The position numbers and the translations under genes are program-made. A stretch of DNA of 64,000 nt from a bacterium (GTDB lineage Bacteria > Zhuqueibacterota > Zhuqueibacteria > Residuimicrobiales > Krinioviventaceae): assembly GCA_963675755.2 (NCBI GenBank), contig CAXXMD010000002.1:352001-416000 (forward strand), read 5' to 3'. The first letter of the stretch is position 1, and every line of letters begins with the position of its first letter. Below the pieces are notes generated by a model that saw only the letters and a program-made list of their open reading frames with translations, was not told where the DNA came from and made no database searches. Of this stretch, positions 16,675 to 45,512 are shown piece after piece.

Positions 16675-19965
<3,291 letters not shown>

Positions 19966-19970
19966 AATGT

Positions 19971-20005
19971 ACCCCTGCTGGTTTGATCGATCAGCAGGGG
20001 TTTTT
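19971..20005 (+). terminator. Rho-independent terminator
   Basis: ACCCCTGCTG...CAGCAGGGGT followed by TTTT. Confidence 0.85.
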
Positions 20006-20255
20006 ACTTTTAGCCAATAATTACTTAATTAGCTGCAAAATTTTAAAAATAATAAAAATATTATTTGATCTTTACAATCTAAACAACTATAATGAAATGT
20101 AAATTAATGTAACTTATAGTCTCGCCGTAATCAATACAAGCTCTTTCATTTTTTATTTAATCCGTTTGCAGTATAGTAATTTTTTACATAATTGAATCGG
20201 TTAAATGAAACTTCTTTTCATAAAAAATCACATCTAATCAAACTTGGACAGTACT

Positions 20256-23246
20256 ATGCAAAAAAACTTTTTTTTATTGTACTGCTGTATAATGTTTTTG
20301 ATTTTTCAGATTTTTGTACTTCCATCAAACGCTGCTGTAACCGGCAAAATCAGGGGGCAAGTAGTAGATTCAGCATCAGGCATGGCACTTCCCGGTGTAA
20401 ATGTTGTAATATCACATGTGTGGATAAATGGCCAGGAGGAAGTGTATGATGGAGGCTTGGGGGCAGCCACTAGTATTGATGGTGAATATTTTATTCTCAA
20501 AGTTCCGCCTGGTGTTTATTCTATTTCATCATCAATGATTGGTTACAATACCATAACCAAGCAACAAGTTCAAGTCAGTATTGACCGTACATCAGTAGTC
20601 GATTTTCAGATGGATGAGGCTACTCTGCAAGGCGAAGAAGTAGTTGTTACCGCAGGACGTGACCAAATCCAGGTTGATGTTGCTGCGACTGAAAATTATG
20701 TTACTGCGGAAGAATATCAAAATACACCTTTTGCAAACCGAGTTGAAAATGTTATAGGGCTACAATCCGGAGTGAGTGGCAATATTGTTGAGGGCCAAAT
20801 ATCTATTCGTGCTGGTGATACCCGTGAAGTTGGTCTTTTTGTAGATGGTATGTCGTTGGTGGACAAGAAATTTAATCGTCCTGTTTTCTCTGTTCAACCC
20901 GGTGTAGTGCAGGAGATCAAGGTAATGCGGAACGGGTTTAACGCCGAATACGGGCAGTCCCGCTCGGGAATTATTAATGTAATTACCAAAAATCCAGATG
21001 ATAAATACAGATTTTCAATGGACTATCAATTTACTCCCGCTCACAAACCCCATTATGGTAGAGATAAATTTGATAAAGACTATCGATGGGAATGGAGATT
21101 ACTTGACGGCCCAAACGCATTTGTTGGAGATACATTATACCTACCAGATGGAATACATCAGGATATGAAAATTTGGATGGGATGGAATAAATATGCTGAA
21201 GAATTATTATCAGATGATAATCCGGATAATGACCTGACTGCTGAAGAAGCATATGAATTATGGAAATGGCGACATCGTCCCATGGAATATGGTAATCTTG
21301 ATGGACATAATGTTGACCTCTCATTTTCGGGACCAGTACCTTTGATGCCGTGGAAAACCAATTTTCTTGCCGGTGCGAAATATCAATTCAAACCTTTGGA
21401 CTATCCTCAGTCGACTGACCATTATGATGAAAAAATGGGCTCCCTAAAAATAATATCAAATCCTTCGCCCAATATAAAGCTGACATTTAATGGTATGTAT
21501 TCTTCAGTTACCTCTGCAGCTGGCGGTAGGTTGGATGCAACCTGGGCAACAGAGACATTGATTGATTATGATGGTGTAACCCTGAGAGATTATTATCCCT
21601 ATTATTATCCTGTTATTAATCGTGAAACCAGTTTGATAGGTGCCAAGTTGGTACATACCTTGTCACCAACACTGTATTATGAAACTTTTATCAATTATTT
21701 TAATATTGGTTGGAACTTGTCCCGGGCAGATCAATCCAGTGCTGCGGATGGACGCTATTTCCATGGAAGATTATATTATGATCCGCAATCCGGTTATATA
21801 CCACGTTCCTTAGGCGTTGATGATGATGCATCAGATTTTCGAATGGCGGGTATTGATCAAACCTGGGATGATTCCTGGAATAAGCGGTTTGTTTTTAATT
21901 TTGCACTTACAAACCAGTTTCATCCCGCCCATGAACTAAAATTTGGTGTAAATGGAAACTATGATATCCTGCGTGAAGATAGAGTCTATTGGCCTAATGA
22001 AGATCCTGATAAAGAATTTATTCGTCGATACAAAGTTAAACCTTACGAGTTTGCTTCTTATATTCAGGACAAGATCGAATTTCAGGGCATGGTTGCCAAT
22101 ATTGGTTTACGTTTTGATTATTTCAATACCAACACAGACCGGCCGGATGTAACTGCAATACTCGATTATGCCAAAGACCGTGACATGTGGGAAGCAGTCA
22201 AGAATAATGAATATCCAATGATGCGGGCAAAACCTAAATATTATGTCAGTCCTCGTGTTGGTATTTCTCATCCCTTGTCTGACAAAAGTAAAGTGTATTT
22301 TAATTATGGTCATTTTGTTCAAACACCTCCCAGCCGCGATCTTTATATCCTAACATTGGATGGCGAGCGACCTGGTATTCAAATGATGGGCAATCCTGAA
22401 CTCGATTTTGAAAAAACCATTGCCTATGAGCTTGGTTTTGATATGAGTGTTAAAAGTGACTTGCAATTCCACGTAGGTGCATTTTATAAAAAGAACAGCA
22501 ATGTAGCCAATCGAATGACTTCTGCGCATCTTGATCAAAGTGTGGTTGTGGATTGGTTTGATGATATAGGTTACGCAGAAATACGTGGTCTGGAATTAGA
22601 GTTACGCAAGTCAACAGGACAGTTTTTTACCGGTTGGATAAATTATAATTATATCAAAAAAAGTAATTCTGATCTGGGTGTTCCCGGTTTGTCGGATAAT
22701 CCCATTATTACCGATGATCCATCAGTCGGCAGAAATGGTACAATCTGGGGAGTCCCAACTTCAGAGATCCGTGATATAAGCCCCAATGCCCGTGGTGTTT
22801 TATCATTACATGCACCCAGCGATTGGGGGCCAAAACTTAAAGGTTTCCCACTAGTCAGCCAAACCAGTATCAGTTTGCAAATGCATTATCAAGGTGGTGC
22901 TTTAAAAGAACATCCCAAAACGAGTTTTCAGGACATGTACCCTAATATTCGTTTTCGTGAGCTGAGTAAATTCTGGGCTGATTTACGAGTGTCTCGCATG
23001 TTCAGAGTTGCTTTTGTTAATATGGAATTATATATGGATATAAGTAATATTTTTCACTCTACTTTTCGAAATCCACCAACAGGTACAAGTGGAGAAGATT
23101 ATTATGATGATCTGTGGGAAGCAGGACGTTTAGACCATGTGGGAACAGACGAGTTGACGAATCCCATGATCCTGTTAACTGAAAATGATGATGTATATTG
23201 GGGCAGGGTCAAAGTTTTTAATTTTGGATTACGTATTAATTTATAG
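20256..23246 (+). CDS. TonB-dependent receptor with N-terminal carboxypeptidase-regulatory-like domain (module 1)
   Basis: TGKIRGQVVD...LPGVNV, plug IRAG...VDG and GFNAEYGQSRSGIINVITK, barrel motifs YIQDKIEF, GLRFDYF, SPRVGISHP, YFNYGHFVQ and GNPELDFEKTIAYELG. Confidence 0.9.
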   Translation: MQKNFFLLYCCIMFLIFQIFVLPSNAAVTGKIRGQVVDSASGMALPGVNVVISHVWINGQEEVYDGGLGAATSIDGEYFILKVPPGVYSISSSMIGYNTITKQQVQVSIDRTSVVDFQMDEATLQGEEVVVTAGRDQIQVDVAATENYVTAEEYQNTPFANRVENVIGLQSGVSGNIVEGQISIRAGDTREVGLFVDGMSLVDKKFNRPVFSVQPGVVQEIKVMRNGFNAEYGQSRSGIINVITKNPDDKYRFSMDYQFTPAHKPHYGRDKFDKDYRWEWRLLDGPNAFVGDTLYLPDGIHQDMKIWMGWNKYAEELLSDDNPDNDLTAEEAYELWKWRHRPMEYGNLDGHNVDLSFSGPVPLMPWKTNFLAGAKYQFKPLDYPQSTDHYDEKMGSLKIISNPSPNIKLTFNGMYSSVTSAAGGRLDATWATETLIDYDGVTLRDYYPYYYPVINRETSLIGAKLVHTLSPTLYYETFINYFNIGWNLSRADQSSAADGRYFHGRLYYDPQSGYIPRSLGVDDDASDFRMAGIDQTWDDSWNKRFVFNFALTNQFHPAHELKFGVNGNYDILREDRVYWPNEDPDKEFIRRYKVKPYEFASYIQDKIEFQGMVANIGLRFDYFNTNTDRPDVTAILDYAKDRDMWEAVKNNEYPMMRAKPKYYVSPRVGISHPLSDKSKVYFNYGHFVQTPPSRDLYILTLDGERPGIQMMGNPELDFEKTIAYELGFDMSVKSDLQFHVGAFYKKNSNVANRMTSAHLDQSVVVDWFDDIGYAEIRGLELELRKSTGQFFTGWINYNYIKKSNSDLGVPGLSDNPIITDDPSVGRNGTIWGVPTSEIRDISPNARGVLSLHAPSDWGPKLKGFPLVSQTSISLQMHYQGGALKEHPKTSFQDMYPNIRFRELSKFWADLRVSRMFRVAFVNMELYMDISNIFHSTFRNPPTGTSGEDYYDDLWEAGRLDHVGTDELTNPMILLTENDDVYWGRVKVFNFGLRINL

Positions 23247-23260
23247 CAGAAAGGTCACGA

Positions 23261-25348
23261 ATGAAAACCAGAATTATTGGATTGGTTATATTATTTATAT
23301 GTTTATCTGCTGTCAATTCATACAGTCAAATGAAACACCATCAGATAGGGCGCTTGTGGCAAACCATGTTTGAGGTGGGTACCCGGCCAAATTATTCTCC
23401 CTTGTATACGGCAATGAATTATCCCGGTGGAGATTTTTATCTGGGTACTCGAAAAAATATGGACCGTACCGGCCTTTGGATTGGTGTAAAAGAATGGACT
23501 AATAAATTCAACGAATATCAGCCCTATTATGTATCAGAGGGCGGGTATATGAATAATGAAGCTACTGGAGTGGTTTTTCCCATTTATAATAGAAAGTATG
23601 TGCGTCAGCGTCTGCCGCTTGTATCAATTAATGGAACCGCTGAAAAACGATATTCGGATTCACGAGACAGCAGCACCAGACGAACTTCACTGGATTCAGA
23701 TGAGCAAATAATTACAAAATGGGCTACTGATGTAGGGATTGAAGTCACACGTACCAGTTATGCTTTTGCTAATCCGAGACATGACAGTTATATCATTCAG
23801 GAATATGTATTTAAAAATACCGGCAATGCTGATAAAGAGGAAAATACAATTGAATTACCTGATCAGGTTTTAAAGGATGTATATTTTGGATTTTGGAGAA
23901 CATTTATTCCATCTTTAGATGTAGGGCATTCTCAAATGGGTAGCAAACATGATGAATGGTGCCATTATTATGGAAACCAACCTGGTGATTCGCTGCGTGG
24001 ATTCTGGTATGTATATGATGGCGATAATGAATACAAATTATTTGATGATACAGGTGATCCATCCGAATTAAATGGAGAGTTCCTTTCCCCTCAATATCCT
24101 GCATTTGGAGTGCTGCACGCGGATACAGATTATCTGTCAGAAATTGATGATCCTGAACAACCGGCCACTGTTAATTACTGGCCTTATAGCCAGGTCAATT
24201 CTCATGTGAATGGTGATCCGGATGCATCTCTTTATACAGATCTCAGCAGTGGTACACAAAGCCAGGGATCAGATACAGGAGAATATGGCAGTCCTATTGA
24301 TCCACAGATTCAACAACCCCAATTACTCATGTCATTTGGGCCTTATGAAATTCCATTTGGACAAGATGTTCGCATTGTTCTGTTTGAAGCTGTTGGTAGT
24401 GTGTCACGAAAACAGGCAATGCAAAAAGGACGTGATTGGTTCGCTGGTAATTTAGAGTGGAATGATCTGACAGGTGATGAAGCAAAAAACGCATTTGTTG
24501 CTACAGGTAAAGATTCGCTGCACGAGATAGCCAGGCGTGCGGAATGGACATGGCAAAATGGTATTGAAGCTGTTCCAGATGGTCCGGAATCTCCCAGTTT
24601 GAATATTGCAGCCGGCCCGGCAAAAGTAGAGCTGGAATGGTATTATAACACCAATGACTCTTTACCCCCTAATCCTGATGTAGACACCGGTGAATATGAT
24701 TTTGCCGGATATCGTCTATACCGGGCTTCGGATAATTATAATAATGAATATTATAAAATTTGGGAATGTGGGGGAAACACGGGTATTGAAATTACAAACA
24801 AATATACAGACCGTGATGTTGAGCGCGGACAAAGCTATTATTATTATGTAACTGCTTATGATGATGGTACACAAAATCAGGGTGGATTGTTCCCGGGTAC
24901 ACCTGTAGAATCCAGTCATTTCAGTAATCGAAATTTTATTTACGCAGGAGTGCCTTATGCCGGGGCCAGACCTCAGCTTGATTCTGTTTTTGTAGTCCCC
25001 AATCCATTCCATTTTCAGGGACTTGCTTATGGTGGTACCTGGGCAAATGATTATAATTTTGATCCCAATACGGGTGGTCGTCCTGAAGACAAGCTGTTAT
25101 TTGTTGGATTGCCGGCTAAAGCAACCATTAGAATTTTTACAGGCAGTGGTAATTTGATTAAAACGCTTGAACACCCGAATCCTTATAACGCCCAATCTGT
25201 TTCTGAATCTGCTGATGAAATGTGGCTACAGATAACTGATGAATGGCAAACGATCAAGAGTGGTGTTTACTTTTTTCACGTTGAAGGATGGGATCTGCAG
25301 GGCAATTATATTGGTGAAACCATGGGCAAGTTTATCATTATACGCTAA
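23261..25348 (+). CDS. Large secreted receptor-partner protein with FN3-like domain and variant T9SS-like C-terminal domain (module 1)
   Basis: Sec signal with no lipobox. FN3-like PESPSL...VELEW...DFAGYRLYR...YYYYVTAYD. Tail VFVVPNPF...LPAKATIRIFTGSGNLIKTL...SGVYFFHVE...GKFIIIR. Confidence 0.75.
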   Translation: MKTRIIGLVILFICLSAVNSYSQMKHHQIGRLWQTMFEVGTRPNYSPLYTAMNYPGGDFYLGTRKNMDRTGLWIGVKEWTNKFNEYQPYYVSEGGYMNNEATGVVFPIYNRKYVRQRLPLVSINGTAEKRYSDSRDSSTRRTSLDSDEQIITKWATDVGIEVTRTSYAFANPRHDSYIIQEYVFKNTGNADKEENTIELPDQVLKDVYFGFWRTFIPSLDVGHSQMGSKHDEWCHYYGNQPGDSLRGFWYVYDGDNEYKLFDDTGDPSELNGEFLSPQYPAFGVLHADTDYLSEIDDPEQPATVNYWPYSQVNSHVNGDPDASLYTDLSSGTQSQGSDTGEYGSPIDPQIQQPQLLMSFGPYEIPFGQDVRIVLFEAVGSVSRKQAMQKGRDWFAGNLEWNDLTGDEAKNAFVATGKDSLHEIARRAEWTWQNGIEAVPDGPESPSLNIAAGPAKVELEWYYNTNDSLPPNPDVDTGEYDFAGYRLYRASDNYNNEYYKIWECGGNTGIEITNKYTDRDVERGQSYYYYVTAYDDGTQNQGGLFPGTPVESSHFSNRNFIYAGVPYAGARPQLDSVFVVPNPFHFQGLAYGGTWANDYNFDPNTGGRPEDKLLFVGLPAKATIRIFTGSGNLIKTLEHPNPYNAQSVSESADEMWLQITDEWQTIKSGVYFFHVEGWDLQGNYIGETMGKFIIIR

Positions 25349-25360
25349 CTGGAGTGTTAT

Positions 25361-26398
25361 ATGAAAACCGGTTTTAAAATTGTTTTTATTCTATACATTT
25401 TGTTAAATGCGATAACCTGTTTGTATGCCGGGCAAAAAAACGTTGGACAAAGTGGAATGACATATTTAGCAATCAGTATGTGTTCCAGAGAAAATGCAAT
25501 GGGAGATGCCGGTACAGCAAGTGTTAAAGGAATTAACGGGTTGTGGCATAATCCTTCCGTTATTGCTGATATTGACAATTTTGCTGTTTCTCTCAATCAG
25601 GTCGATTGGTTAATAGATACTTATGTTTCGGGTATTGCGGCAGCTTATGGAATGGGCAACTGGGGTACCATTGCTCTGGATGTAACTTATATGGACTGGG
25701 GAGACATTATTGGTACAAAGCCAGTTGACAGATCTGTTGATCCCAGAGGATTTCAGATCACCGGCAATATTGAAGTCGAAGATTATGCACTGGGAGTTGC
25801 TTATGCAAGACGTATCAATGACAAGTTCGCCATGGGTGTTAAAATTAAACGTGTACATGAAAATCTTGGAAATGCATTATATGTTACAAGTGAAATAGGT
25901 GAAAATGAAGATGGTGATATAGAATATGAACGTAGCTCAAAAGAGTGGGAATTGGATAACTGGGGTTTTGATTTTGGGACTATATATGATACGGGCTGGA
26001 AGGGGCTCTTGTTTGCTATGACTTTGCAGAATTTTTCACGTGATATGAAATATTATTATGATGAATTTCAGTTGCCTATGACGTTAAAAATGGGACTCGC
26101 AATGAAGATTTCTGAAATCTTTTTTCCTGATAGTAAACAATTTTATTTGAACGCTGCCATAGATGCCAGTACGCCAAATGATTATTCTGAAAGAGTCAAT
26201 ATCGGTTCCGAATTGGTTTACCTTGATCGTTTTGCTTTACGTGGTGGGTACAAGTTTAATAATGATGTCGAATCTATGACGCTAGGATTTGGTTTCAATT
26301 TTGATTTTTCAGGAGTAAATGCCAGTATTGATTATGCTTATTCAAGTGCTACCTATTTTCAGGATATTAACAGGTTTTCGCTCAATTTTAATTTTTAA
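25361..26398 (+). CDS. PorV/PorQ-family outer-membrane barrel (module 1)
   Basis: YLAISMCSRENAMGDA...LWHNPS, DYALGVAYAR, DFGTIY, QLPMTLKMG, LRGGY, IDYAY and terminal FSLNFNF. Confidence 0.85.
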   Translation: MKTGFKIVFILYILLNAITCLYAGQKNVGQSGMTYLAISMCSRENAMGDAGTASVKGINGLWHNPSVIADIDNFAVSLNQVDWLIDTYVSGIAAAYGMGNWGTIALDVTYMDWGDIIGTKPVDRSVDPRGFQITGNIEVEDYALGVAYARRINDKFAMGVKIKRVHENLGNALYVTSEIGENEDGDIEYERSSKEWELDNWGFDFGTIYDTGWKGLLFAMTLQNFSRDMKYYYDEFQLPMTLKMGLAMKISEIFFPDSKQFYLNAAIDASTPNDYSERVNIGSELVYLDRFALRGGYKFNNDVESMTLGFGFNFDFSGVNASIDYAYSSATYFQDINRFSLNFNF

Positions 26399-26409
26399 TA
26401 TTGGTATTC

Positions 26410-28011
26410 ATGATGTTGATAATAGTAAGAAATTTTATTTTTAAAATACTTTTGCTCTTCTTTTTTTCTCTATTAGTTTTTTGCACATCTCGAACTGTAA
26501 ATAATTTTATATCAATTCAGGGTGATCGATTTATTGATGACAGGGGGAACCAGATAATTCTCCATGGAGTCAATCTGGTGAACAAGGATAAATCAGTCAA
26601 CTATTTAGGTTCTGAAAATGAGAATGATTTCAAACTCATGAGATCCTGGGGTATGAATTGTATAAGGCTGGGAATAATTTGGGATGGCCTGGAACCACAA
26701 CCGGGTGTGTATGATGATGATTATCTTGAAGGAATTGACAAGCGCATTGAATGGGCAAAACAAAATGGCCTATATGTCATTTTAGATATGCACCAGGATT
26801 TGTTCAGCGTAAAATTTTCAGATGGCGCCCCTGAATGGGCTACTTTAACAGATGATAAAGAACACATTCATAATAGTCCTGTATGGAGCGATGCCTATAA
26901 CACCAGTCCTGCCATACAAACCGCGTTCGATAATTTTTGGAATAATAAACCCGCATCTGATGGCATGGGGATTCAGGACCATTATGCAAAGGCCTGGCAA
27001 TATGTTGCCACTCGGTATGCAAATGAACCCACCATAGTTGGTTATGATATTATGAATGAACCGTTTATCGGTTCAAAAATTACTGAGATACAGCCGCTGC
27101 TGTTTTTTGAAGGAGCAAAGATTTTTGCTGAACAAGATTCTACTGAGCATGCTTCTGTAGAAGAACTTTTACAAATGTGGATGACAGAGGAGGGACGTTA
27201 TCAAATTTTGCAGCGTTTGGCTAATCCCTATGTTTATGCGCGTGTAATAGCTCCCACTGAACCCGGTTATCAGGAATTTGAGAAACATACACTAACATCC
27301 ATGTATCAGCGGGTTGCCAATGATATACGCAAAGTAGATCAGAATCATATTTTGTTTCTAGAGACTACTATTGCATCGAATATGGGTGTTCGGTCTGGTC
27401 TTGAACCCCTTGTAGATTCTTTGGGAAATCGTGATCCATTACAAGCTTATGCGCCACATGGTTATGATCTGGTAACTGATACAAAGGATGTTGCACTGGC
27501 AAGTAACGAAAGATTGGATTTAATTTTTTCCCGACATGAAGAAACATCAAAACGTCTGCTTATGCCCATGCTAGTAGGAGAGTGGGGCGCGTATTATATG
27601 AATGCAAATGCAAAAACTACAGCAATGCATGTTTCTGCTTTATTTGAAAAAATGATGTGTGGTGACACCTATTGGAGTTATAATAATAATTTACCTCAGG
27701 CTGACTTTTTTGAAGCAATCAGCAGGATTTATCCCGCTCATGTTCCGGGAGAATTATTGTTTTATTCAAGTGATACGGAAACAAATATATTTCATTGCCG
27801 CTGGCTAAACAATCCCGAAATTAACGGATCGCTCAAGATATACATCCCATCACGATATATGGTTTCACTGGATCAAATTGAATGCATACCTGGCAATATG
27901 AATATCAGGTTAGAGATAGAAGAGGGCAGTGAAAGCAATTACATCATTGCAAAACCTGCCCGGGATTATTCGGATATTTGTACTATTACATTTCGGCTTT
28001 ATACTAAATAA
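26410..28011 (+). CDS. GH5 glycoside hydrolase, endoglycoceramidase-like
   Basis: LHGVNLVNK, IRLGIIWDGLEP, LDMHQDLFS, DGAPEWA, GYDIMNEP (acid/base), APHGYD and LVGEWG (nucleophile), plus a C-terminal beta-sandwich. Start is uncertain (26401-26413). Confidence 0.85.
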   Translation: MMLIIVRNFIFKILLLFFFSLLVFCTSRTVNNFISIQGDRFIDDRGNQIILHGVNLVNKDKSVNYLGSENENDFKLMRSWGMNCIRLGIIWDGLEPQPGVYDDDYLEGIDKRIEWAKQNGLYVILDMHQDLFSVKFSDGAPEWATLTDDKEHIHNSPVWSDAYNTSPAIQTAFDNFWNNKPASDGMGIQDHYAKAWQYVATRYANEPTIVGYDIMNEPFIGSKITEIQPLLFFEGAKIFAEQDSTEHASVEELLQMWMTEEGRYQILQRLANPYVYARVIAPTEPGYQEFEKHTLTSMYQRVANDIRKVDQNHILFLETTIASNMGVRSGLEPLVDSLGNRDPLQAYAPHGYDLVTDTKDVALASNERLDLIFSRHEETSKRLLMPMLVGEWGAYYMNANAKTTAMHVSALFEKMMCGDTYWSYNNNLPQADFFEAISRIYPAHVPGELLFYSSDTETNIFHCRWLNNPEINGSLKIYIPSRYMVSLDQIECIPGNMNIRLEIEEGSESNYIIAKPARDYSDICTITFRLYTK

Positions 28012-28018
28012 TCTTTGT

Positions 28019-28822
28019 TTATTGATTTTTCAAAAACTTGATCAAGCCTTCAGGATCGTCTGTCTGAATACCATCCGTACCCCAATCCAATGCTTGCTGC
28101 CAGCATGAGGAATCACTTTCATCAACTAAAACAATAGCACCAGCATTGTGACACGCATCCAGGAATGTTTTTGAATAATGTTTCCATACCGATGCAACCA
28201 CATGCGGTTTAAATTCAGTAAGCAGTGTATTCAGGTTCTTTTCAGGGCCCGGGTCTGGCATAATAATGCATTCAGGACATAATTGTTCGACCTCTTTTAG
28301 CTCTTGAGGATCAGCATACCATACAATATCCTTTTCCATGTCCCATTTTTTAATTACAGATAGAGTTTGATTAATATCTGCGTTTTTAAAATCCAGGTAA
28401 ATCCCGATTTTACCTTTGCACAATTCCAGTATCTCATCAAAAGTAGGAATTCTCTCATTCTTCCATTTTGCATCAATACGACTCCCAATATCCATAGCTT
28501 TTAATTCAGCAAGCGTGAATTCCGATACAGAACCTGTAGTGCCATCAGTAACGTATGCATCGATTTTACTGTTATGAACACTAACCAGCGCACTATCGCG
28601 GGTTGTTCTAAGATCTATTTCAACAAAGTCAGCACCAAGATCAATAGCTTTTTGGTAGGCTGCAAGCGTATTTTCCGGAATTCCTATATGTGCACCCCGA
28701 TGTGCAACCACATATATGTTACCGTTTTTTGGTGGAATCAGAACCGTATCTGATTGGTTTTTACATCCCATTGCTCCCAATGTTGCAACTAGTATTAAAA
28801 GAAATTTTATCCGGTTCATCAT
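28019..28822 (-). CDS. Glycerophosphodiester phosphodiesterase (GDPD) lipoprotein
   Basis: Lipobox AMGC. Motifs AHRGA, PENTLAAY, VEIDLRTT, RIPTFDE and DGIQTD. Confidence 0.92.
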   Translation of the reverse strand: MMNRIKFLLILVATLGAMGCKNQSDTVLIPPKNGNIYVVAHRGAHIGIPENTLAAYQKAIDLGADFVEIDLRTTRDSALVSVHNSKIDAYVTDGTTGSVSEFTLAELKAMDIGSRIDAKWKNERIPTFDEILELCKGKIGIYLDFKNADINQTLSVIKKWDMEKDIVWYADPQELKEVEQLCPECIIMPDPGPEKNLNTLLTEFKPHVVASVWKHYSKTFLDACHNAGAIVLVDESDSSCWQQALDWGTDGIQTDDPEGLIKFLKNQ

Positions 28823-28823
28823 T

Positions 28824-32526: not shown

Positions 32527-32716
32527 CAGAACTCCATATATAATTCATAAAATTAAAGTATTTTGATTAACACTCTTTTACAATTAAAAATTCAATGAAT
32601 AGAAAAAGTTTGTAAATTTAATGGAAAAATGAACAATTTGCAGTTTCTTGCAAAAAAAAATGCAACTTTGGTCATTTTTTCCTTTGAATTGTTTAAAAAT
32701 GGAATATATTTATAAG

Positions 32717-32730
32717 AACAAACGTTTGCC
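32717..32730. promoter_or_regulatory. LacI-family operator (site 1)
   Basis: aaCAAACGTTTGcc: a perfect 10-bp palindrome with central CG, lying between the divergent phosphatase operon and the LacI gene. Confidence 0.7.
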
Positions 32731-32917
32731 TTTTTAAGTCAGACAATTGTAAAAAAATGTAAATTCTAGATTTATTTATTTTTTAAAATACAAAAATTAG
32801 CTTAAAAAATAAATAAAAAAACTGGTTTTGGTTTGAATTGCTGTTCATTTATATGAATTATATTTAAATTCTGCTTAATAATTTCTTAATCATGCATGTT
32901 TACATTTAATTTTCAAA

Positions 32918-32931
32918 TGCAAACGATTGCC
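32918..32931. promoter_or_regulatory. LacI-family operator (site 2)
   Basis: tGCAAACGATTGCc immediately upstream of the LacI gene SD. It is near-identical to site 1. Confidence 0.7.
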
Positions 32932-32945
32932 CCTTAAGGAACCTT

Positions 32946-33959
32946 ATGGCAACACTTAAAGATGTAGCAAAATTAGCCAAAGTTCATCCGTCAACAGTCT
33001 CCCGTGTATTACGTGATATTGATAGTTTATCAATAACTACCAAAACACGAGAGCGCATCCTTAATGCAGTAGAAGAATTAAAGTATCGTCCTGATCAGAT
33101 GGCCCGGGCATTAAAGATGGGAAAAAGTTTTTCAATAGGTCTGATCATTCCAGATATATCAAATCCATTTTTTGCAGAACTAGTCAAGATAATAGAAAAT
33201 GAATGTACCAAAGCTGGTTTTATTCTTCTAGTATCAATATCTAATGAAGATCAGGAAAAAGAGATTCAGCATGTTAACAATTTGTTAGGCAGAGGTATAG
33301 ATGGATTGATTTTAGCTCCTGTGCAGAATAGTTATAATCATATTTTAGAATTAAAAAGTAAAAATTTCCCCTTTTTGTTGATAGATCGTTATTTTGAAAC
33401 ATTTGAGACCAATGCAATAATCAGTGATAATGAGGAATCAGCATTCAAGGCGGTTCAATATCTTGTCAAGCTTGGTCACAATCGTATTGGTTTTATCAGT
33501 GGTAGACCAGAAATTTATACAATACGGAAAAGGTTGGAAGGTTATAAAAAGGCTCTTAAAGAATTCAATTTGGAAGATAATGCAGATTTGATGTGGGGAG
33601 CAGGCCATACTTTTCAGAATGGATATGAAGCAACGCAAAATTTACTAGCTTTAGAAAAACCACCAACAGCGTTATTAATATCTGGAAACCTCATAACTTT
33701 AGGCGCTTACAAAGCATTGTTGGAAAAAGGATTGCATATTCCGAATGATATGTCTATAATAGCTTTTTCCGATAATGTTATTTCTCAATACTTGTCTACA
33801 CCTTTAACAACAATATCTCACCCACTTGAAGAAATGGGTAAGCGTGCTTTTCAATTGTTGTTTCAGAATATCAATACAGAAGTCAGAAATTCTTATACTA
33901 AAATTACAGTTTGCACTAATTTTATAATTAGAGAATCGACAGGTAAAAGAACAAGTTGA
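32946..33959 (+). CDS. LacI-family transcriptional regulator
   Basis: ATLKDVAKLAKVHPSTVSRVL HTH, IGLIIPDISNPFF, GHNRIG and PLTTI motifs. Confidence 0.97.
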   Translation: MATLKDVAKLAKVHPSTVSRVLRDIDSLSITTKTRERILNAVEELKYRPDQMARALKMGKSFSIGLIIPDISNPFFAELVKIIENECTKAGFILLVSISNEDQEKEIQHVNNLLGRGIDGLILAPVQNSYNHILELKSKNFPFLLIDRYFETFETNAIISDNEESAFKAVQYLVKLGHNRIGFISGRPEIYTIRKRLEGYKKALKEFNLEDNADLMWGAGHTFQNGYEATQNLLALEKPPTALLISGNLITLGAYKALLEKGLHIPNDMSIIAFSDNVISQYLSTPLTTISHPLEEMGKRAFQLLFQNINTEVRNSYTKITVCTNFIIRESTGKRTS

Positions 33960-34038
33960 AATTTTAATATGGTAATTAATAGGTTTAAATAATAATATAT
34001 AATCAAATGAGATGTATTTCTTGCTCTTGGAGAAAATT

Positions 34039-36969: not shown

Positions 36970-36989
36970 AAAAATGGGTATATAAGATT

Positions 36990-38057
36990 ATGAAAAAAAT
37001 ACATTTATTATTCAGCTTTATTGTAATCTTTTACTGTAGCCAGTCTGTATTTTCTCAAATTGATTTGAGTGATGCCCAATACAGTTCTGATATAAGTAGA
37101 AGTGGAACATCTGCAGGTGCAATGCTTGAAATTGGTATTGGCGCCCGTGCAGAAGCTATGGGAGGAGCATTCGTTGGTGTTGCTGATGATCCTTCTGCTC
37201 TTTACTGGAACCCTGCAGGAATTATTAAAGTAAATACAATTTCTGTTCAGGCGACAAAAACCGAATGGTTTGTAGGTACAACTTTTAATTCACTTGATTT
37301 GGTCGTACCCGTTAAAATGGTCAACTCTGCACTTGGCGTTCATATTGCCATGTTAGATTATGGCTCTAATCCGGTGCGTACAATTTTCCGTCCGGAAGGA
37401 AATGGAGAAACATATTCGGCTTCCGATCTTGTTGCTGGACTCTATTGGGCTTTGGGCATTACAGACCGTGTAAACGTTGGCTTGGGTTTGAAATATTTTC
37501 AACAGAATATCTGGCATGTTACCGGTACCAACGTTGCTGTTGATTTGTCAATTTTGTTCGATACACCAGTAAAAGGTTTGACACTTGGTGGTGCATTGAG
37601 CAATCTTGGACCAGAGTTCTCACTTGATGGTCGAGATCTGACAAGAGTTTATGATATTGATGGCCGTAAAGATACATATTACAATAATGATAATGTCGCA
37701 ATCCAGCTTGCCACTGAAGCTTATCCTTTACCACTTTTATTTAGATTTGGTATGGCTTACACATGGCAACTTACTGCAAGAAATTCTTTGCTAATTGCGT
37801 CAAACGTCAACCATCCTAGCAATAATGTTGAAACTGTGGATGTAGGCGCAGAATTGAATTTGCTTGATCTTGGTTTTTTGAGAGCTGGATATCAATCTTT
37901 GTTTGATGATAAATCTGTTTCTGGGCTTTCTCTGGGAGCAGGTTTGAAATACAGAGTACTTGGTTCAGCTACTTTGACTTTTGATTATGCATGGACAGAC
38001 TGGACTGTTCTTGCGTCAACCAACAGATTTACTGTTGGTATCAGTACAGCTTATTAA
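36990..38057 (+). CDS. PorV/PorQ-family outer-membrane barrel (module 2)
   Basis: LEIGIGARAEAMGGAFVGVADDPSALYWNPAG, SNLGP, YPLPLLFRFG, LRAGY and FDYAW motifs. Confidence 0.9.
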   Translation: MKKIHLLFSFIVIFYCSQSVFSQIDLSDAQYSSDISRSGTSAGAMLEIGIGARAEAMGGAFVGVADDPSALYWNPAGIIKVNTISVQATKTEWFVGTTFNSLDLVVPVKMVNSALGVHIAMLDYGSNPVRTIFRPEGNGETYSASDLVAGLYWALGITDRVNVGLGLKYFQQNIWHVTGTNVAVDLSILFDTPVKGLTLGGALSNLGPEFSLDGRDLTRVYDIDGRKDTYYNNDNVAIQLATEAYPLPLLFRFGMAYTWQLTARNSLLIASNVNHPSNNVETVDVGAELNLLDLGFLRAGYQSLFDDKSVSGLSLGAGLKYRVLGSATLTFDYAWTDWTVLASTNRFTVGISTAY

Positions 38058-38096
38058 TTAAGGTTTTGTTTCTAAAATTTAGTTAAAGGATGATTT

Positions 38097-41000
38097 ATGA
38101 AAAAGCTTGTTAATATATGTGCATTGATCATTTTATCAGCAAGTTCGCTTTTTGCGCAGGCTGCAGGATCACAATTTGATCTGCATCCTATGCACTGGGC
38201 CCGTTTTTGGGCAAGGGGACTTTTTGATCGTAACTTGATTTATTGCCCTGTTTGGAATATTGGTAATGTTACAGATTCTGGCGTTGACCCGGGTGATGAT
38301 ATGCAATGGCCCGGTAGTGAAGGTCTGGCATTTGTTGATGCTGCTGTTTTTTATATTGGTGCATTGGTTTATGACATGTCTGCTTATGAAGGAAAACAAG
38401 TTCCTGAAACCTGGGATGGTAGTGATATTTATATTGTAAGTGATGCTTATAATACTCATGTTTCTCAAGCAGTACCATGGGCCCAGTTATCTAAAGATAA
38501 AACTCACCAGCAGAAATGGGCACCAATTCCTGGATTTTTTAATGATGGTGCTTATGGCTATATTTATGGAATAAATGAAGATACTAATGGTGATGGTGAA
38601 TTAGCACCTGCTGAAGATGTTAATTTGAATGGTATTTTAGATTATAATCTTGAACCCCCGGAAAGTATTTTGAAAAGTATGGCTATCAGTACTGATAAAC
38701 GTACCTGGCCTGAATACTGGCCCGGTGGTACTTATGTTGGTGATGATCGTGAATTTTTTGGAAGACCGCCAAGAACTATTGAACCTGGTGAACGACAAGG
38801 TTTGTGGAATGGTGAATTTAAAGCGGGTACCATTTCTGATCAGGAAACATTGTATTGGATGGATGATCATGAAAATGACCATTGGAATGATTATAAAGTA
38901 GGTCGTTACTGGCCAATGAAAAATTCTGATGGTACTCCGGATACAACACCCTGGGCAGATGGTGGTATTGCCGGTGCTGGTGTTGAAGTTGAAGCCAGAA
39001 CTTATGCATGGTTTCACCCATTAGCTGAAGATTTGCTGGTTTCTGTTTATCGTGTGCGTAACTATAGTGATTATACTCTGAACCGAGTTGTTACGGGTAT
39101 GTGGGCAAATGCCAATATCGCTGGAAAAGGTGATTATAACCTTGCCAGTTATATTATTGCAGATTTTGATTATGAAGGCTCTGGTGGTCGTCTTGATTTC
39201 GATATTTTGTATCAATGGCACCAATTCCCGGATCAGCTTTCTACATATAAAAAAGTTGGTACCTTTGGATTTGCATTTCTTGAAAGTCCTGGTATCCCTT
39301 ATAACGGTTTAGATGATGATGCTGATGGTCTTGTAGATGAAGCCATGGATGATGGTATTGATAATGATGGTGACTGGTTACCTTATGCTGATATAGGTAT
39401 CGATAAAAAAGGACCTGGTGATGAAGGTTATGTGGGTCCCGATGGTGATGGAACTGAAAATAATGGAAGATGGGATACTGAAGATTCAAACTTGAATGGA
39501 GCTTTGGATCCCGGTGAAGATACTAATAAAAATGATAAACTTGATTTTGAACCTATTCGTAACGACCGTGGAACTGATGGTATTGGTCCTGATGAAAATG
39601 GCTGGCCAGGTCCTGATCCTGATGGTACTGAAGCCAATGGCGCTATGGATATTGGCGAACCGAATTTTGACAAAACTGATATCGATGAAGCTGACCAAGC
39701 TGGTTTGAAACATGTTTATGTTTATGAAAACAATAAAGATCTTAAAGATGATAAAGCCTTTTGGGAAAAATATCTTGCCAAAGATGATGTAGATATTGAA
39801 GAAACTGATGAAGATATCGTTTTTACTTTTGGCGCTCGTAATGTAAAATTAGATATTGATGTTTGGAGACGCTTTACAATTGCAATGATTATGGGTGAAG
39901 ATGAAGCTGATGCAATTCGTAACAAAGCAACCATGCAGAATATCTATGATGAGAATTATCAGTTCCTGACTCCTCCATTACAACCTACTTTGGTATCCAA
40001 TACTACAGATAGAAAAGTTCAATTGTATTGGGATACAGATGCTGAAACTTCTAAAGATCCATTCTTTGGTGAAGATTTTAATGGTTATCGCCTTTACAAG
40101 AGTACCGATCCTAAATTTCTGGATGTTAAAACCATTACTGATGCTTTTGGTAACATACTCTTATTTGAACCTTTGGAAATTTGGGATAGGGATGACGGTT
40201 TGATGGGTGTTCACCCAATTCCATTCCCCAACTTGGGTGTACATTATGATATGGGTAATGATAGTGGTTTGAAACATGCTTATGTTGATACGGTTGTTGA
40301 GAATGGTAGAACTTATTATTATGCGTTAACTGCGATTGATGCAGGTAATGATGATGACTTTTATGAAAGAAAACTCGTTACTGAAGATTATCCAATGCAG
40401 GCTATGCCTAGTGAATCACCGTTTAATATTACAGTAAACAAACTGGGTGAAGTTGTGTATAGAGACAGGAACACAGCAGTTGTAATTCCTACTGAACCTG
40501 CTGCCGGTTTTACAGAGCCACATATCGACTCAACTCTGATTAAACACAATTCAGGTTGGGCTCGTGGTGGAAAAATGAATATTGAAGTTTTCAATAAAAA
40601 TCATGCAAATCTGGGTAATGTTTATGAACTCCAGTTTGAAGATGATCACTGGCTTGACAGCCTCACGAACAAGTTTGAGTGGGGTGGAACAACAGGTATA
40701 CGTTGTTTGAACATTACAACCGGTGATACCATGTTTGATTTTCAATATGATACACCATATTATTTCAAAGAAGAAGCTTATAAGGAAATTGAGCAAGGCT
40801 TTTTTGAAGGTGTTCACTATGATCTGAGTTTTCCGATTGATACGGATGTAAGATATCATGGTATTGATATTGTTAAAACAAATGAAGATGGTCGCAAAAC
40901 CAATGAATGGAAACGTTGGGCAACTGATACAGAATCTAATCTTCGTGTTGAAGAAATTGATCTTGATAATTCAGATGCTACCATTGCATTACCTTTTGAT

Positions 41001-41735
41001 TTTGAAATTAGAGTAGAAGAGGAAATGGGTGCTGATACTTCAATTGCTATTCCACCATTGATTAAAGCATATCCTCTTAATTTTACAACTTGGAATGTTA
41101 CAGATCCAAATAATCCTATCCAGATGGACGTTGTTGTTCGTTACGATAAGGACTCTCGACTGGAATTACCCGATGAAATGTTTGGTCAACTTTGGGACAG
41201 CACACGTGTAATTTTAAAGCTTCCTAATAAAAAAGAAACGGGATGGTTGTCTTCTTGGACAGTTGAATTTTATAAAAACCGTTTTGATTCTTTAAAACCT
41301 GTTATTGCTCCTGCTCCTGGTGACATTTATAGGTTTAAAACGACCCGTAATCCATCTCGTCATGACCGTTTTCAATTTACAATTGATGGTGGTACATGGG
41401 ATGAAGATAAAGCAAAAATTGAAATGCGTGATATCTATGTAGTACCTGATCCTTATGTAGTATCAAGTAGTTACGAATCTATATATGAACTTGCAGGATA
41501 CTCGCAAAGACGTGTTGATTTTGTAAATTTACCGCCACAATGTACTATTAAAATATTTACAGCCAGTGGTAAACTTGTAAGAACTCTGGATCACAATGAG
41601 GCAAATGACTTTGGACGCCATTCCTGGGATCTAACTACTGAAGATGGACCCGAAGTTGCCTTTGGAATGTACTTTTTTGTAGTTGAATCAAAAGCACTTG
41701 GAACAACACGTGGTAAATTTGCGATTATCAAGTAA
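38097..41735 (+). CDS. Large secreted receptor-partner protein with Asp/Gly Ca-binding repeats, FN3-like domain and variant T9SS-like C-terminal domain (module 2)
   Basis: Sec signal. DxN/DxDG repeats. FN3-like PLQPTL...VQLYWD...DFNGYRLYKS...ENGRTYYYALTAID. Tail IYVVPDPY...FVNLPPQCTIKIFTASGKLVRTL...GMYFFVVE...GKFAIIK. Confidence 0.78.
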   Translation: MKKLVNICALIILSASSLFAQAAGSQFDLHPMHWARFWARGLFDRNLIYCPVWNIGNVTDSGVDPGDDMQWPGSEGLAFVDAAVFYIGALVYDMSAYEGKQVPETWDGSDIYIVSDAYNTHVSQAVPWAQLSKDKTHQQKWAPIPGFFNDGAYGYIYGINEDTNGDGELAPAEDVNLNGILDYNLEPPESILKSMAISTDKRTWPEYWPGGTYVGDDREFFGRPPRTIEPGERQGLWNGEFKAGTISDQETLYWMDDHENDHWNDYKVGRYWPMKNSDGTPDTTPWADGGIAGAGVEVEARTYAWFHPLAEDLLVSVYRVRNYSDYTLNRVVTGMWANANIAGKGDYNLASYIIADFDYEGSGGRLDFDILYQWHQFPDQLSTYKKVGTFGFAFLESPGIPYNGLDDDADGLVDEAMDDGIDNDGDWLPYADIGIDKKGPGDEGYVGPDGDGTENNGRWDTEDSNLNGALDPGEDTNKNDKLDFEPIRNDRGTDGIGPDENGWPGPDPDGTEANGAMDIGEPNFDKTDIDEADQAGLKHVYVYENNKDLKDDKAFWEKYLAKDDVDIEETDEDIVFTFGARNVKLDIDVWRRFTIAMIMGEDEADAIRNKATMQNIYDENYQFLTPPLQPTLVSNTTDRKVQLYWDTDAETSKDPFFGEDFNGYRLYKSTDPKFLDVKTITDAFGNILLFEPLEIWDRDDGLMGVHPIPFPNLGVHYDMGNDSGLKHAYVDTVVENGRTYYYALTAIDAGNDDDFYERKLVTEDYPMQAMPSESPFNITVNKLGEVVYRDRNTAVVIPTEPAAGFTEPHIDSTLIKHNSGWARGGKMNIEVFNKNHANLGNVYELQFEDDHWLDSLTNKFEWGGTTGIRCLNITTGDTMFDFQYDTPYYFKEEAYKEIEQGFFEGVHYDLSFPIDTDVRYHGIDIVKTNEDGRKTNEWKRWATDTESNLRVEEIDLDNSDATIALPFDFEIRVEEEMGADTSIAIPPLIKAYPLNFTTWNVTDPNNPIQMDVVVRYDKDSRLELPDEMFGQLWDSTRVILKLPNKKETGWLSSWTVEFYKNRFDSLKPVIAPAPGDIYRFKTTRNPSRHDRFQFTIDGGTWDEDKAKIEMRDIYVVPDPYVVSSSYESIYELAGYSQRRVDFVNLPPQCTIKIFTASGKLVRTLDHNEANDFGRHSWDLTTEDGPEVAFGMYFFVVESKALGTTRGKFAIIK

Positions 41736-43290: not shown

Positions 43291-43342
43291 AGTTACCACC
43301 TAATAAATAAACCAGTCACAATCACTTAATTAAGGAGGAACC

Positions 43343-45453: not shown

Positions 45454-45491
45454 AGATGGGATTGTCATTCCGACAGTCCCATCTTTTTTTT
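45454..45491 (+). terminator. Rho-independent terminator
   Basis: AGATGGGATTGTC-attcc-GACAGTCCCATCT followed by a T-run. Confidence 0.9.
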
Positions 45492-45512
45492 ATGTTAAAC
45501 AGGATAGGTGAA

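Follow-up and report, generated by a model that had tools for sequence, protein, structure and literature searches.

Repeated gene trios encoding a TonB-dependent receptor, a PorV-family barrel and a putative surface partner in a genome of the phylum Zhuqueibacterota

Introduction

What do a TonB-dependent receptor, a small PorV-like barrel and a large secreted protein do together when their genes stand side by side twice in one stretch of bacterial DNA? The window analyzed here comprises 64,000 nucleotides of contig CAXXMD010000002.1 (assembly GCA_963675755.2). The original prediction, made from the sequence, was that each trio encodes its own PorV paralog, which holds a cognate partner on the cell surface as a substrate-capturing lid of the receptor, in a module that does without SusD. 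We report here a computational analysis of this prediction. A literature search found no description of such a module.

Gene organization

Both trios are present, tightly packed, with the same three protein types in different order: receptor-partner-barrel in trio A and receptor-barrel-partner in trio B (Table 1). The surroundings are also as described, with GH2, GH5, GDPD, two metallophosphoesterases and LacI identified by Pfam. The intergenic gaps of trio A are 14 nt (receptor to partner) and 12 nt (partner to barrel). The GH5 gene starts 2 nt after barrel A and probably belongs to the same operon; a scan of positions 20001 to 28011 for terminator-like sites found no strong one. A hairpin that matches the terminator consensus is the predicted upstream limit of the trio A unit, and the GH2 gene before it is probably transcribed separately. 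Of the two genes 3′ of trio B, one encodes a SurA-like PPIase whose signal is lipobox-like and the other a 696-residue protein with an ordinary T9SS tail; both probably share the transcript of the trio.

Table 1. Features of the two trios and their flanks, in window coordinates.
Feature	Position	Strand	Basis or remark
GH2 beta-galactosidase gene, trio A context	16702..19965	+	Pfam Glyco_hydro_2_C, 333 bits
Terminator-like hairpin (13 pairs, 7 GC, T-run)	19971-20001	+	Match to consensus only
Receptor A, TonB-dependent, 1000 aa	20244..23246	+	Probable start 20256
Partner A, 695 aa	23261..25348	+	No Pfam or NCBIfam match; AF2 model
Barrel A, PorV/PorQ family, 345 aa, predicted holder of partner A tail	25361..26398	+	NF033709
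GH5 glycoside hydrolase	26401..28011	+	Pfam Cellulase, 117 bits
LacI-family regulator, directly 5′ of trio B	32946..33959	+	Pfam LacI and Peripla_BP
Receptor B, TonB-dependent, 985 aa	34012..36969	+	Probable start 34039
Barrel B, PorV/PorQ family, 355 aa	36990..38057	+	NF033709
Partner B, 1212 aa	38097..41735	+	No Pfam or NCBIfam match; AF2 model
Two genes 3′ of trio B	41683..45433	+	Pfam Rotamase_2; Por_Secre_tail, 30.6 bits
Terminator-like hairpin 3′ of trio B unit	45454-45484		

Receptors and barrels

Both receptors contain CarboxypepD_reg and Plug domains (Pfam), and TonB_dep_Rec_b-barrel is among the listed matches for receptor B only. Receptor A is laid out as an N-terminal CarboxypepD_reg domain, a TonB-box-like stretch, the Plug and a large barrel. 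The two are paralogous (E 1e-48), and both fail the SusC/RagA model TIGR04056, with 51.6 bits for A and 90.1 for B against a cut-off of 368.

By profile score, the small barrels fall in the PorV/PorQ family and not with FadL channels. NF033709 gives 169.7 bits for barrel A and 162.7 for barrel B (cut-off 90), and PF19572 (PorV) is above its cut-off in 6 of the 10 other trio barrels. Toluene_X/FadL gives 18.9 bits for barrel A (cut-off 29.7) and no match for barrel B; one of the ten others lies just above the cut-off (30.4 bits). Scores of 41 to 84 bits on the PorV and PorQ equivalog models (cut-offs 220 to 250) make the barrels orthologs of neither, and the PorP/SprF model TIGR03519 gives 19.3 bits against 90.55. 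Barrels A and B share 22% identity (E 9e-17). In a tree, all 12 trio barrels of the genome group in a single clade with support 95/99, to which neither canonical PorV nor the other paralogs belong; barrel B falls in the trio B clade. Seven more PorV-family paralogs directly adjoin other tail-bearing proteins, two of them PorU-like, a pattern consistent with barrels generally being encoded beside the proteins that they hold.

Partner proteins

Partner A consists of a signal peptide, a beta-supersandwich (residues ~25 to 435), an FN3 domain (~446 to 560) and an atypical T9SS tail (~577 to 695). Partner B has the same order, with an extra beta region before its atypical tail (~1106 to 1212) and a supersandwich broken by an acidic Asp/Gly-rich repeat region (~400 to 560). 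The AF2 model of partner A is good (pLDDT 87.4, pTM 0.84) and that of partner B poor (pLDDT 60.6). Residues ~20 to 495 of partner A resemble the non-catalytic N-domains of GH15, GH94, GH65 and GH116 enzymes (Z 19.3 to 15, 240 to 295 residues aligned), the best match being a glucoamylase N-domain (Z 19.3), and the poor model of partner B has the same top matches. Both partners are modeled with a galactose-mutarotase-like beta-supersandwich, as in the GH15/GH65/GH94 N-domains. Neither matched any Pfam or NCBIfam family, SusD and enzyme families included, and the family and fold comparisons gave no catalytic-domain match. The partner could be an enzyme; fold likeness by itself gives no function. 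Sec signals without a lipobox had been claimed for both, and inspection by eye agrees: each signal region has a Cys, preceded by Ile at −1, which we take not to fit the lipobox pattern.

The partners share their C-terminal ~110 to 125 residues (29% identity by BLASTP, E 1e-12; hhalign probability 99.8). By profile comparison, these tails are a class apart from the ~200 ordinary T9SS tails of the genome. An HMM trained on 100 of the ordinary tails gives 12.1 to 33.4 bits for the partner tails versus a median of 127.7 bits for 103 held-out ordinary tails. Conversely, leave-one-out HMMs of partner tails give 86.6 to 129.7 bits for the held-out partner. On the partner HMM, ordinary tails score a median of 25.4 bits; the highest-scoring outsider is C2:2141039-2145235 (69.8 bits), followed by the PorZ ortholog (47.0 bits). 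The tail of partner B also superposes on the solved PorZ structure (Z 11.6, rmsd 2.5 over 92 residues, 24% identity). Pfam Por_Secre_tail is reached by none of the 12 partners, and CHU_C stays below its cut-off.

A complex of barrel A with residues 436 to 695 of partner A was predicted with a score of 0.92 in three of three runs, versus 0.01 for the best of three controls, so an interface of the kind proposed is predicted for this cognate pair. The runs shared at least 96% of contacts, partner pLDDT was at least 70, and the predicted interface involves only tail residues 577 to 695. In calibration, 116 of 157 solved complexes attained this mark, as did 2 of 215 mismatched pairs, counts that are approximate because our own alignments were used.

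Conservation

The genome holds 12 trios. Related loci were surveyed where there was room on both sides of the partner gene (44 loci, labeled KSB1, Calditrichota, Latescibacterota, Neomarinimicrobiota, WOR-3, Ignavibacteriae and others). In 38 of these, the partner gene has both a receptor and a barrel gene no more than three genes away on its own strand; the order receptor-partner-barrel occurs in 33. The trio therefore persists in other genomes, as the original prediction requires, and with the 12 local copies its linkage exceeds chance. Exceptions among the related loci have neither receptor nor barrel near the partner (L031, L043, L044), no receptor (L054), no barrel (L055, L068) or four tandem partner genes by themselves (L008). 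The partner family comprises 1085 clusters at 50% identity (E ≤ 1e-3); of 121 genomes sampled from the phylum, 114 carry it, one of them unpublished (G088).

Mantel tests across the 12 trios gave r = 0.86, 0.79 and 0.63 for the three gene pairs (p ≤ 2e-4). Most of the signal stems from the split between types A and B and from two pairs of recent duplicates; when the five type-B trios are taken alone, significance remains for receptor-barrel only (r 0.63, p 0.03). The three genes co-diverge, and shared inheritance does not equal binding.

SusD models PF07980 and PF14322 have no match in the genome (completeness 98%), so the module is SusD-less in its own genome. The description does not extend to the phylum: SusD homologs occur alongside the partner family in 47 of 121 sampled genomes, so organisms that have SusD can carry the module too. 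Components of the T9SS were found (SprA, two PorU and PorZ, with PorV near cut-off); GldK, GldL, GldM and GldN gave no match in searches in which the controls likewise gave none.

Proposed mechanism and alternatives

The analysis directly establishes how the genes are arranged, repeated and conserved, which families they belong to, and that the partner tails form a class, and the trio barrels a clade, of their own. On balance, we think it probable that T9SS exports the partner, that its own barrel retains it as PorQ does PorZ, and that the partner assists the receptor by binding glycans or as its lid. The partner would pass through Sec and then the T9SS translocon by way of its C-terminal tail. 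The tail is predicted to stay uncleaved and to remain bound among the extracellular loops of the PorV/PorQ-type barrel encoded at the same locus. By analogy with PorQ for PorZ and PorP/SprF for type-B cargo, the barrel, rather than a lipid, would anchor the partner to the membrane. PorZ keeps its tail, which binds PorQ, and PorV-like barrels may shield the tails of their cognate proteins from cleavage (PMC10202324); anchorage of type-B cargo by PorP/SprF is described in PMC9143113 and PMC12618676. The claim of a private barrel for each partner gains in silico support from tail class, barrel clade, co-divergence and the predicted complex, the score of which may reflect likeness to solved PorV-CTD complexes (PMC10994853). 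Gene linkage, the carbohydrate-domain-like fold and the sugar-catabolic neighbors further suggest that the beta-supersandwich and FN3 domains bind a locus-specific glycan and hand it to the adjacent receptor, with the partner as lid or nearby surface glycan-binding protein. The receptor, judging from its family, would take in oligosaccharides with TonB energy. Neighbors of other trios include LacI with a GH13 amylase and SSF symporters; GH28 with a pectate lyase; two GH28 with GH43 and a regulator; and a hybrid two-component sensor. Three to five of the 12 have no obvious sugar genes nearby (L081, L089 and L091; arguably L080 and L082).

The three products may instead be co-regulated and unassembled, which we consider unlikely. 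The partner would then be ordinary T9SS cargo, an enzyme or a binding protein, which the barrel only shuttles from the translocon; it would be released or attached to LPS by PorU, and the receptor would import products without touching it. Canonical PorV is a transient shuttle, with tail affinity thought to drop after SprA exit (PMC10994853), the genome encodes two PorU sortases, many GH enzymes carry this fold family beside their catalytic domains, and barrel or receptor is missing at some related loci. However, the ~200 ordinary tails need no private barrel, the partner tails are a separate class for which PorZ's retained tail ranks second among outsiders, the trio barrels are a separate clade, the partner lacks a catalytic-domain match, and the linkage is tight across phyla.

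Oar-like export, which could make up for the GldKLMN motor (not detected, in searches whose controls gave no match either), seems very unlikely. It would suit the strict one-to-one pairing of receptor and partner and the Oar architecture of the receptors (CarboxypepD_reg NTE, Plug and barrel), but SusC importers have the identical architecture (both per PMC6434023), none of the ~200 other tail-bearing proteins has a receptor of its own, and SprA is present. The loci of several trios also include glycosidases, sugar regulators and sugar symporters of the inner membrane, a gene content that follows a logic of import.

The alternative that the small barrels conduct hydrophobic compounds as FadL-type channels and have nothing to do with the partner is already disfavored and scarcely credible: PorV is a FadL homolog and weak Toluene_X matches occur, but barrels A and B pass NF033709, 6 of the 10 others pass PF19572, the barrels consistently adjoin a tail-bearing protein, and barrel A has a predicted interface with the tail of partner A.

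Relation to known systems

As in the SusC/SusD (RagA/RagB) pairs and utilisomes of Bacteroidota polysaccharide utilization loci, the gene of a CarboxypepD_reg TonB-dependent transporter adjoins that of a surface partner, in loci of glycosidases and sugar regulators, many per genome. Unlike SusD, which has a TPR-like, helical fold, the partner is a modeled all-beta supersandwich with a T9SS tail, matching neither SusD model and lacking a lipobox by eye; the third gene encodes a PorV-like barrel, and the receptors differ from SusC in their TIGR04056 scores.

PorQ-PorZ and PorV-PorU of the T9SS attachment complex likewise join a PorV/PorQ-family barrel to a surface protein held by an uncleaved T9SS tail, as predicted here; the PorZ tail ranks second among the non-partner tails on the partner-tail model and is matched in structure by the tail of partner B. 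The trio partner, unlike PorZ and PorU, lies outside the secretion machinery and pairs one-to-one with a TonB-dependent receptor, and the barrel-partner pair is present 12 times. PorP/SprF systems (SprF-SprB, PorP-PG1035 and the "specialized shuttles" of Flavobacterium johnsoniae) also link cargo genetically to a dedicated barrel that is needed for, or provides, surface anchorage, with a tail that is probably uncleaved. Barrel family and tail class differ, and the known cargo are adhesins, none linked to a TonB receptor.

Price et al. advance the idea that, in Bacteroides, non-SusC TonB-dependent transporters are paired with non-SusD surface partners encoded beside them (bioRxiv 10.1101/2023.03.17.533168); those lids, unlike the trio partners, are lipoproteins, and PorV, T9SS, type IX and FadL do not occur in that text. 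BamG-BamH of the Bacteroides BAM pairs a FadL/PorV-homologous barrel with a surface protein bound by extracellular loops (PMC12578637), but is BAM machinery with neither T9SS tail nor TonB receptor. The module appears to be a so far undescribed equivalent of SusC/SusD, the nutrient-capture pair of Bacteroides.

Results

Both trios of the original prediction were found by ORF listing and translation of the window, tightly packed on the plus strand. In trio A, 14 nt separate the receptor from the partner and 12 nt the partner from the barrel; GH5 begins 2 nt beyond barrel A. The neighbours are as had been described (GH2, GH5, GDPD, two metallophosphoesterases and LacI), with GH2, GH5 and LacI providing the glycan-enzyme and sugar-regulator setting by which SusC/SusD PULs are recognized. 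Two terminator-like hairpins, identified by consensus match only, delimit these units: a strong one parts GH2 from trio A, and another marks the end of the probable transcript of trio B, in which genes for a SurA-like PPIase and for an ordinary T9SS cargo protein are probably included.

Positions of the trio genes and other features in the window
Feature	Position	Strand	Remarks
Fib_succ_major protein	3032-4876
LVIVD-repeat protein	12632-15634		1000 aa
Terminator-like hairpin	19971-20001		between GH2 and trio A
Receptor A	20244-23246	+	1000 aa; Met at 20256 yields a normal signal peptide
Partner A	23261-25348	+	695 aa
Barrel A	25361-26398	+	345 aa
Receptor B	34012-36969	+	985 aa; probable start 34039
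Barrel B	36990-38057	+	355 aa
Partner B	38097-41735	+	1212 aa
SurA-like PPIase	41683-43290		downstream of partner B
Terminator-like hairpin	45454-45484		after trio B
Second PPIase	45456-46922		after the SurA-like PPIase
C10 peptidase-domain protein	46964-52522		1852 aa; just downstream of the trio B unit
Hydrogenase-like/kinase fusion	57081-59129

Elsewhere in the window, one protein carries a Fibrobacter succinogenes major paralogous domain (149 bits), another is a beta-propeller with a T9SS tail, and a third, whose T9SS tail is of the ordinary kind, combines a C10 cysteine-peptidase domain with DUF5123 or a right-handed beta-helix. A Fe-only-hydrogenase large-subunit-like domain with 4Fe-4S motifs is fused to a histidine kinase (HisKA and HATPase_c) and may form a hydrogenase-like sensor kinase; it adjoins a cluster of NADH-dehydrogenase and ferredoxin-type genes.

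Receptors A and B are paralogous (E 1e-48). Both contain CarboxypepD_reg and Plug domains (Pfam, NCBIfam), and TonB_dep_Rec_b-barrel is listed for receptor B only. Between CarboxypepD_reg and Plug lies an EVVVTA/EVVIVA stretch that, by eye, resembles a TonB box. The SusC/RagA model TIGR04056, whose cut-off is 368.25 bits, gives receptor A 51.6 and receptor B 90.1 bits, the match being confined to the N-terminal part. Comparison of receptor B with solved structures returned NTE and plug fragments only and no close solved relative. Elsewhere in this genome (where coordinates carry the prefixes C1 to C3), C3:799635-806319 holds a thirteenth trio-class receptor (829 aa), followed by four ORFs of ~335-355 aa without a match to the PorV queries.

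The barrels belong to the PorV family, as had been proposed: A and B score 169.7 and 162.7 bits on the PorV/PorQ family model NF033709 (cut-off 90), and on FadL/Toluene_X (PF03349) barrel A reaches 18.9 bits against 29.7 and barrel B has no match. They stay below the cut-offs for PorV proper (NF033710; 73.1 and 41.2 bits vs 250) and PorQ proper (NF033711; 83.6 and 71.6 bits vs 220), and both fail the PorV2 and PorP/SprF models. The two are distant paralogs (22% identity, E 9e-17). This genome has 32 NF033709 matches, 21 of them over the cut-off, and a PorV-like gene elsewhere (C2:903673-904749) scores 240.2 bits against a cut-off of 250. A maximum-likelihood tree was built from 24 PorV-family ORFs, with long proteins trimmed to the first 400 residues and the weakest family matches omitted (for example C2_1392079, C3_289326 and C3_1896459-like short hits, which fell under the phmmer threshold). 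The 12 trio barrels of the genome form one clade in it (95/99) with two branches, type A at 100/98 and type B at 80/66, and are separate from the canonical PorV-like gene and cargo-adjacent paralogs. Seven non-trio paralogs directly adjoin other tail-bearing proteins, without a receptor, and two of those proteins are PorU-like. The PorU-like proteins, of ~1610 aa (C3:1891631-1897526 and C2:2179288-2185148), reach 260 and 181 bits with the PorU model, which is under its cut-off; each directly adjoins its PorV-family paralog, an arrangement that echoes the known PorU-PorV pairing.

SprA and PorU, for which the original prediction had proposed a search, are both encoded in the genome (SprA at C3:1879556-1885587, 518 bits; two PorU at C3:1311408-1318919, 884 and 877 bits), as is PorZ (C1:247458-249611; NF052228, 272.6 bits vs 260). 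GldK gave a best score of 110 bits against 350, from an FGE-sulfatase-like part only, and GldL, GldM, GldN and PF12081 gave 0 matches with TIGRFAM/Pfam models; no control genome was over the cut-off for any of these either.

Neither partner has a significant Pfam or NCBIfam family; the last 60 residues of partner B score 19.5 bits on FlgD_ig and 17.9 on CHU_C, both below 27. An identity as SusD or a known enzyme was rejected on these blank results, and the earlier statement that neither trio has a SusD-like lipoprotein stands, with 0 matches to SusD (PF07980, PF14322) in the 98% complete genome. No Cys in a lipobox context was seen by eye in the partner signals, in line with the original prediction. 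The signal of the SurA-like PPIase does fit the lipobox pattern, with an FLAC motif. Named homologues of the partners are all "hypothetical" or "FN3 domain-containing," and some homologues bear the labels Caldithrix and Melioribacteraceae.

By sequence, partners A and B match over the C-terminal ~110-125 residues (BLASTP 29% identity, E 1e-12; hhalign probability 99.8 over 109 columns) and in a weak FN3-like piece (E 2e-4). Alignment of the two partner alignments with hhalign paired the tail alone, and the kinship of the N-terminal domains is visible only at the fold level. The model of partner A is good (pLDDT 87.4, pTM 0.84). With VIA-align, its residues ~20-495 resemble the noncatalytic N-terminal beta-supersandwich of GH15 glucoamylase (1lf6; Z 19.3, rmsd 3.3, 241 aligned), a galactose-mutarotase-like fold, and they also match the N-domains of GH94, GH116, GH65 and related enzymes. 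The model of partner B is poor (pLDDT 60.6), and only its best-supported matches were used; these give the same fold list (1lf6; Z 18.5, rmsd 2.9, 231 aligned). Fold comparison yielded no catalytic-domain match for either partner, and the common fold of the models does not show what the partners do. A Foldseek search of the PDB with partner A gave TM-scores of 0.10-0.26 and FN3-dominated matches and was set aside for VIA-align.

The partner tails form a class of their own. Por_Secre_tail (PF18962) matches 0 of the 12 partners at E<=0.01, though many neighbouring cargo proteins match it, and TIGR04183, scanned for the window's two partners, matches neither. In a noncircular test, an HMM was built from 100 random ordinary tails of this genome and 103 further ordinary tails were held out; the latter scored a median of 127.7 bits and the 12 partner tails 12.1-33.4 bits. 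Leave-one-out partner HMMs gave the held-out partner 86.6-129.7 bits, and ordinary tails scored a median of 25.4 bits on the partner HMM. The best outsiders on the partner HMM were C2:2141039-2145235 (69.8 bits) and then the PorZ orthologue (47.0 bits). Partner tails run 97-118 residues from a VVPNP/VVPDP motif to the end, compared with about 80 for an ordinary tail of the window, and are related to ordinary tails through common motifs seen by eye and the weak scores of ordinary tails on the partner-tail HMM. The tail of partner B superimposes on solved PorZ (5m11) with Z 11.6, rmsd 2.5, 92 aligned residues and 24% identity. The protein at C2:2141039-2145235 has 1398 aa and no adjacent receptor, with a PorV paralog ~5 kb off (C2:2135498-2136421).

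A complex of barrel A (residues 25-345, alignment of 30) with partner A (residues 436-695, alignment of 46) was predicted at 0.92 in three of three runs, the best of three controls reaching 0.01. Among solved complexes 116 of 157 attain this mark, and among mismatched pairs 2 of 215; the counts hold roughly, since the alignments were our own. At least 96% of the contacts are common to the runs, and partner pLDDT is at least 70. The predicted interface involves tail residues 577-695 only, including part of a partner-specific insertion, and on the barrel the N-terminal segment 25-38 and loops. Because PorV-tail complexes have been solved (PMC10994853), the result indicates likeness to them and may reproduce memorized structures; it does not bear on permanence or specificity.

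ORF calling and phmmer identified 12 receptor, partner and barrel sets in the genome. Seven are of type A, with ~700-aa partners, and include trio A; five are of type B, with 750-1280-aa partners, and include trio B. In one type B set the receptor and barrel are found three genes downstream of their partner. The three genes co-diverge over the 12 trios (Mantel r 0.86 for receptor-barrel, 0.79 for receptor-tail and 0.63 for barrel-tail; p <= 2e-4). Two recent duplicate pairs and the A/B split account for much of this signal, which shows that the genes were inherited together and not that their products touch.

CAZymes, sulfatases or sugar regulators are encoded close to about 7 of the 12 trios. 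The trio loci include L086 (LacI, GH13 amylase, two SSF symporters and a sugar kinase), L084 (GH28 and pectate lyase), L085 (two GH28, GH43, an MGH1-like GH and a regulator), L088 (LacI and a hybrid two-component sensor), L082 (sulfatase) and L083 (GH2 and Cthe_2159); L080, L081, L089 and L091 show no clear sugar genes.

Grouped at 50% identity, the partner family comprises 1085 clusters at E<=1e-3 and 128 at E<=1e-30. With one genome per species, 79 related loci were collected, of which 76 yielded a partner ORF by ORF calling and HMM search; L019 and L020 appear to be one sequence filed twice. The trio is conserved among these loci: of the 44 with at least 3.3 kb upstream and at least 1.3 kb downstream, 38 have both a receptor and a barrel no more than three genes from the partner and on its strand, 33 of these in the order receptor-partner-barrel. 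The six exceptions have neither gene (L031, L043, L044), no receptor (L054) or no barrel (L055, L068). The loci were picked by partner likeness and many are kin, so the counts serve as a description of linkage rather than as an independent statistic. A KSB1 MAG contig (L008, 1-9690) carries four partner-type genes, and its 9.7 kb contain neither receptor nor barrel; three of the four are directly adjacent, with a ~2.6-kb gap between the second and third.

In a sample of 121 genomes of the phylum, including one unpublished genome (G088), the partner family occurs in 114 and SusD_RagB in 47. SusD is found in 1 of 12 genomes of the window's own family and 0 of 14 in two sister families. Part of the phylum thus has both SusD and the module.

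Discussion

The account that we find fairly probable is an uptake route in four steps. The partner is predicted to be exported by Sec and then the T9SS, and its PorZ-like tail to stay uncleaved in the private barrel; its supersandwich/FN3 part would bind the glycan of the locus, and the partner would feed the TonB-dependent receptor as a lid or a nearby binding protein. The proposed module would work like SusC/SusD but lacks SusD, its receptors score far under the SusC cut-off, and its partner does not look like a lipoprotein; its predicted anchoring resembles PorQ-PorZ. Retention of the tail has been described for PorZ-PorQ and PorU-PorV (PMC10202324) and for type-B cargo with PorP/SprF (PMC9143113, PMC12618676). 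Non-SusD lids are known in Bacteroides, as lipoproteins (bioRxiv 10.1101/2023.03.17.533168).

The partner might instead be merely co-regulated cargo, shuttled by the barrel and then released, which we regard as unlikely. A long shot is that the TonB-powered receptor, PorV-like barrel and PorZ-like tail form one machine in which TonB energy acts on the partner, for Oar-like extraction or secretion or for lid opening; if true, the Ton system would be connected with protein handling of the type IX kind in phyla without a detected GldKLMN motor. An Oar-like export role for the receptor finds a precedent in the Oar-type TonB-dependent transporters treated in PMC6434023, and receptors A and B have the Oar-type architecture (CarboxypepD_reg NTE, Plug and barrel); since the same source gives SusC importers this architecture, it cannot tell import from export. 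We hold the export role to be quite improbable. That the barrel is a FadL-type channel is very improbable and was rejected on the NF033709 scores of the window barrels; on PF03349, 1 of 10 other trio barrels reaches 30.4 bits against a cut-off of 29.7.

Full-text literature searches, outside subscription journals and supplements, found no account in which a TonB receptor is linked to both a PorV-like barrel and a tailed partner. In the Caldithrix genome paper the terms SusC, SusD and "secretion system" do not occur, and the passages on TonB-dependent receptors concern vitamin uptake. New here are the 12-fold expansion and two subtypes within one genome, the held-out test that sets the tails apart as a class and ranks PorZ's tail second outside it, the barrel clade, the common partner fold, and the presence of SusD alongside the module in part of the phylum.

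If the four-step uptake account is true, many little-studied FCB phyla (KSB1, Calditrichota, Latescibacterota, Marinimicrobia, Ignavibacteria and others) would capture glycans by a transporter-partner system in which type IX secretion and a private barrel replace lipidation and SusD. This would give a function to more than 1000 clusters of "hypothetical" proteins, define a third class of T9SS tail and assign PorV-like barrels a new job as permanent protein anchors in nutrient uptake. PUL-like loci would also become recognizable outside Bacteroidota, which matters for carbon turnover as read from sediment and water-column metagenomes.
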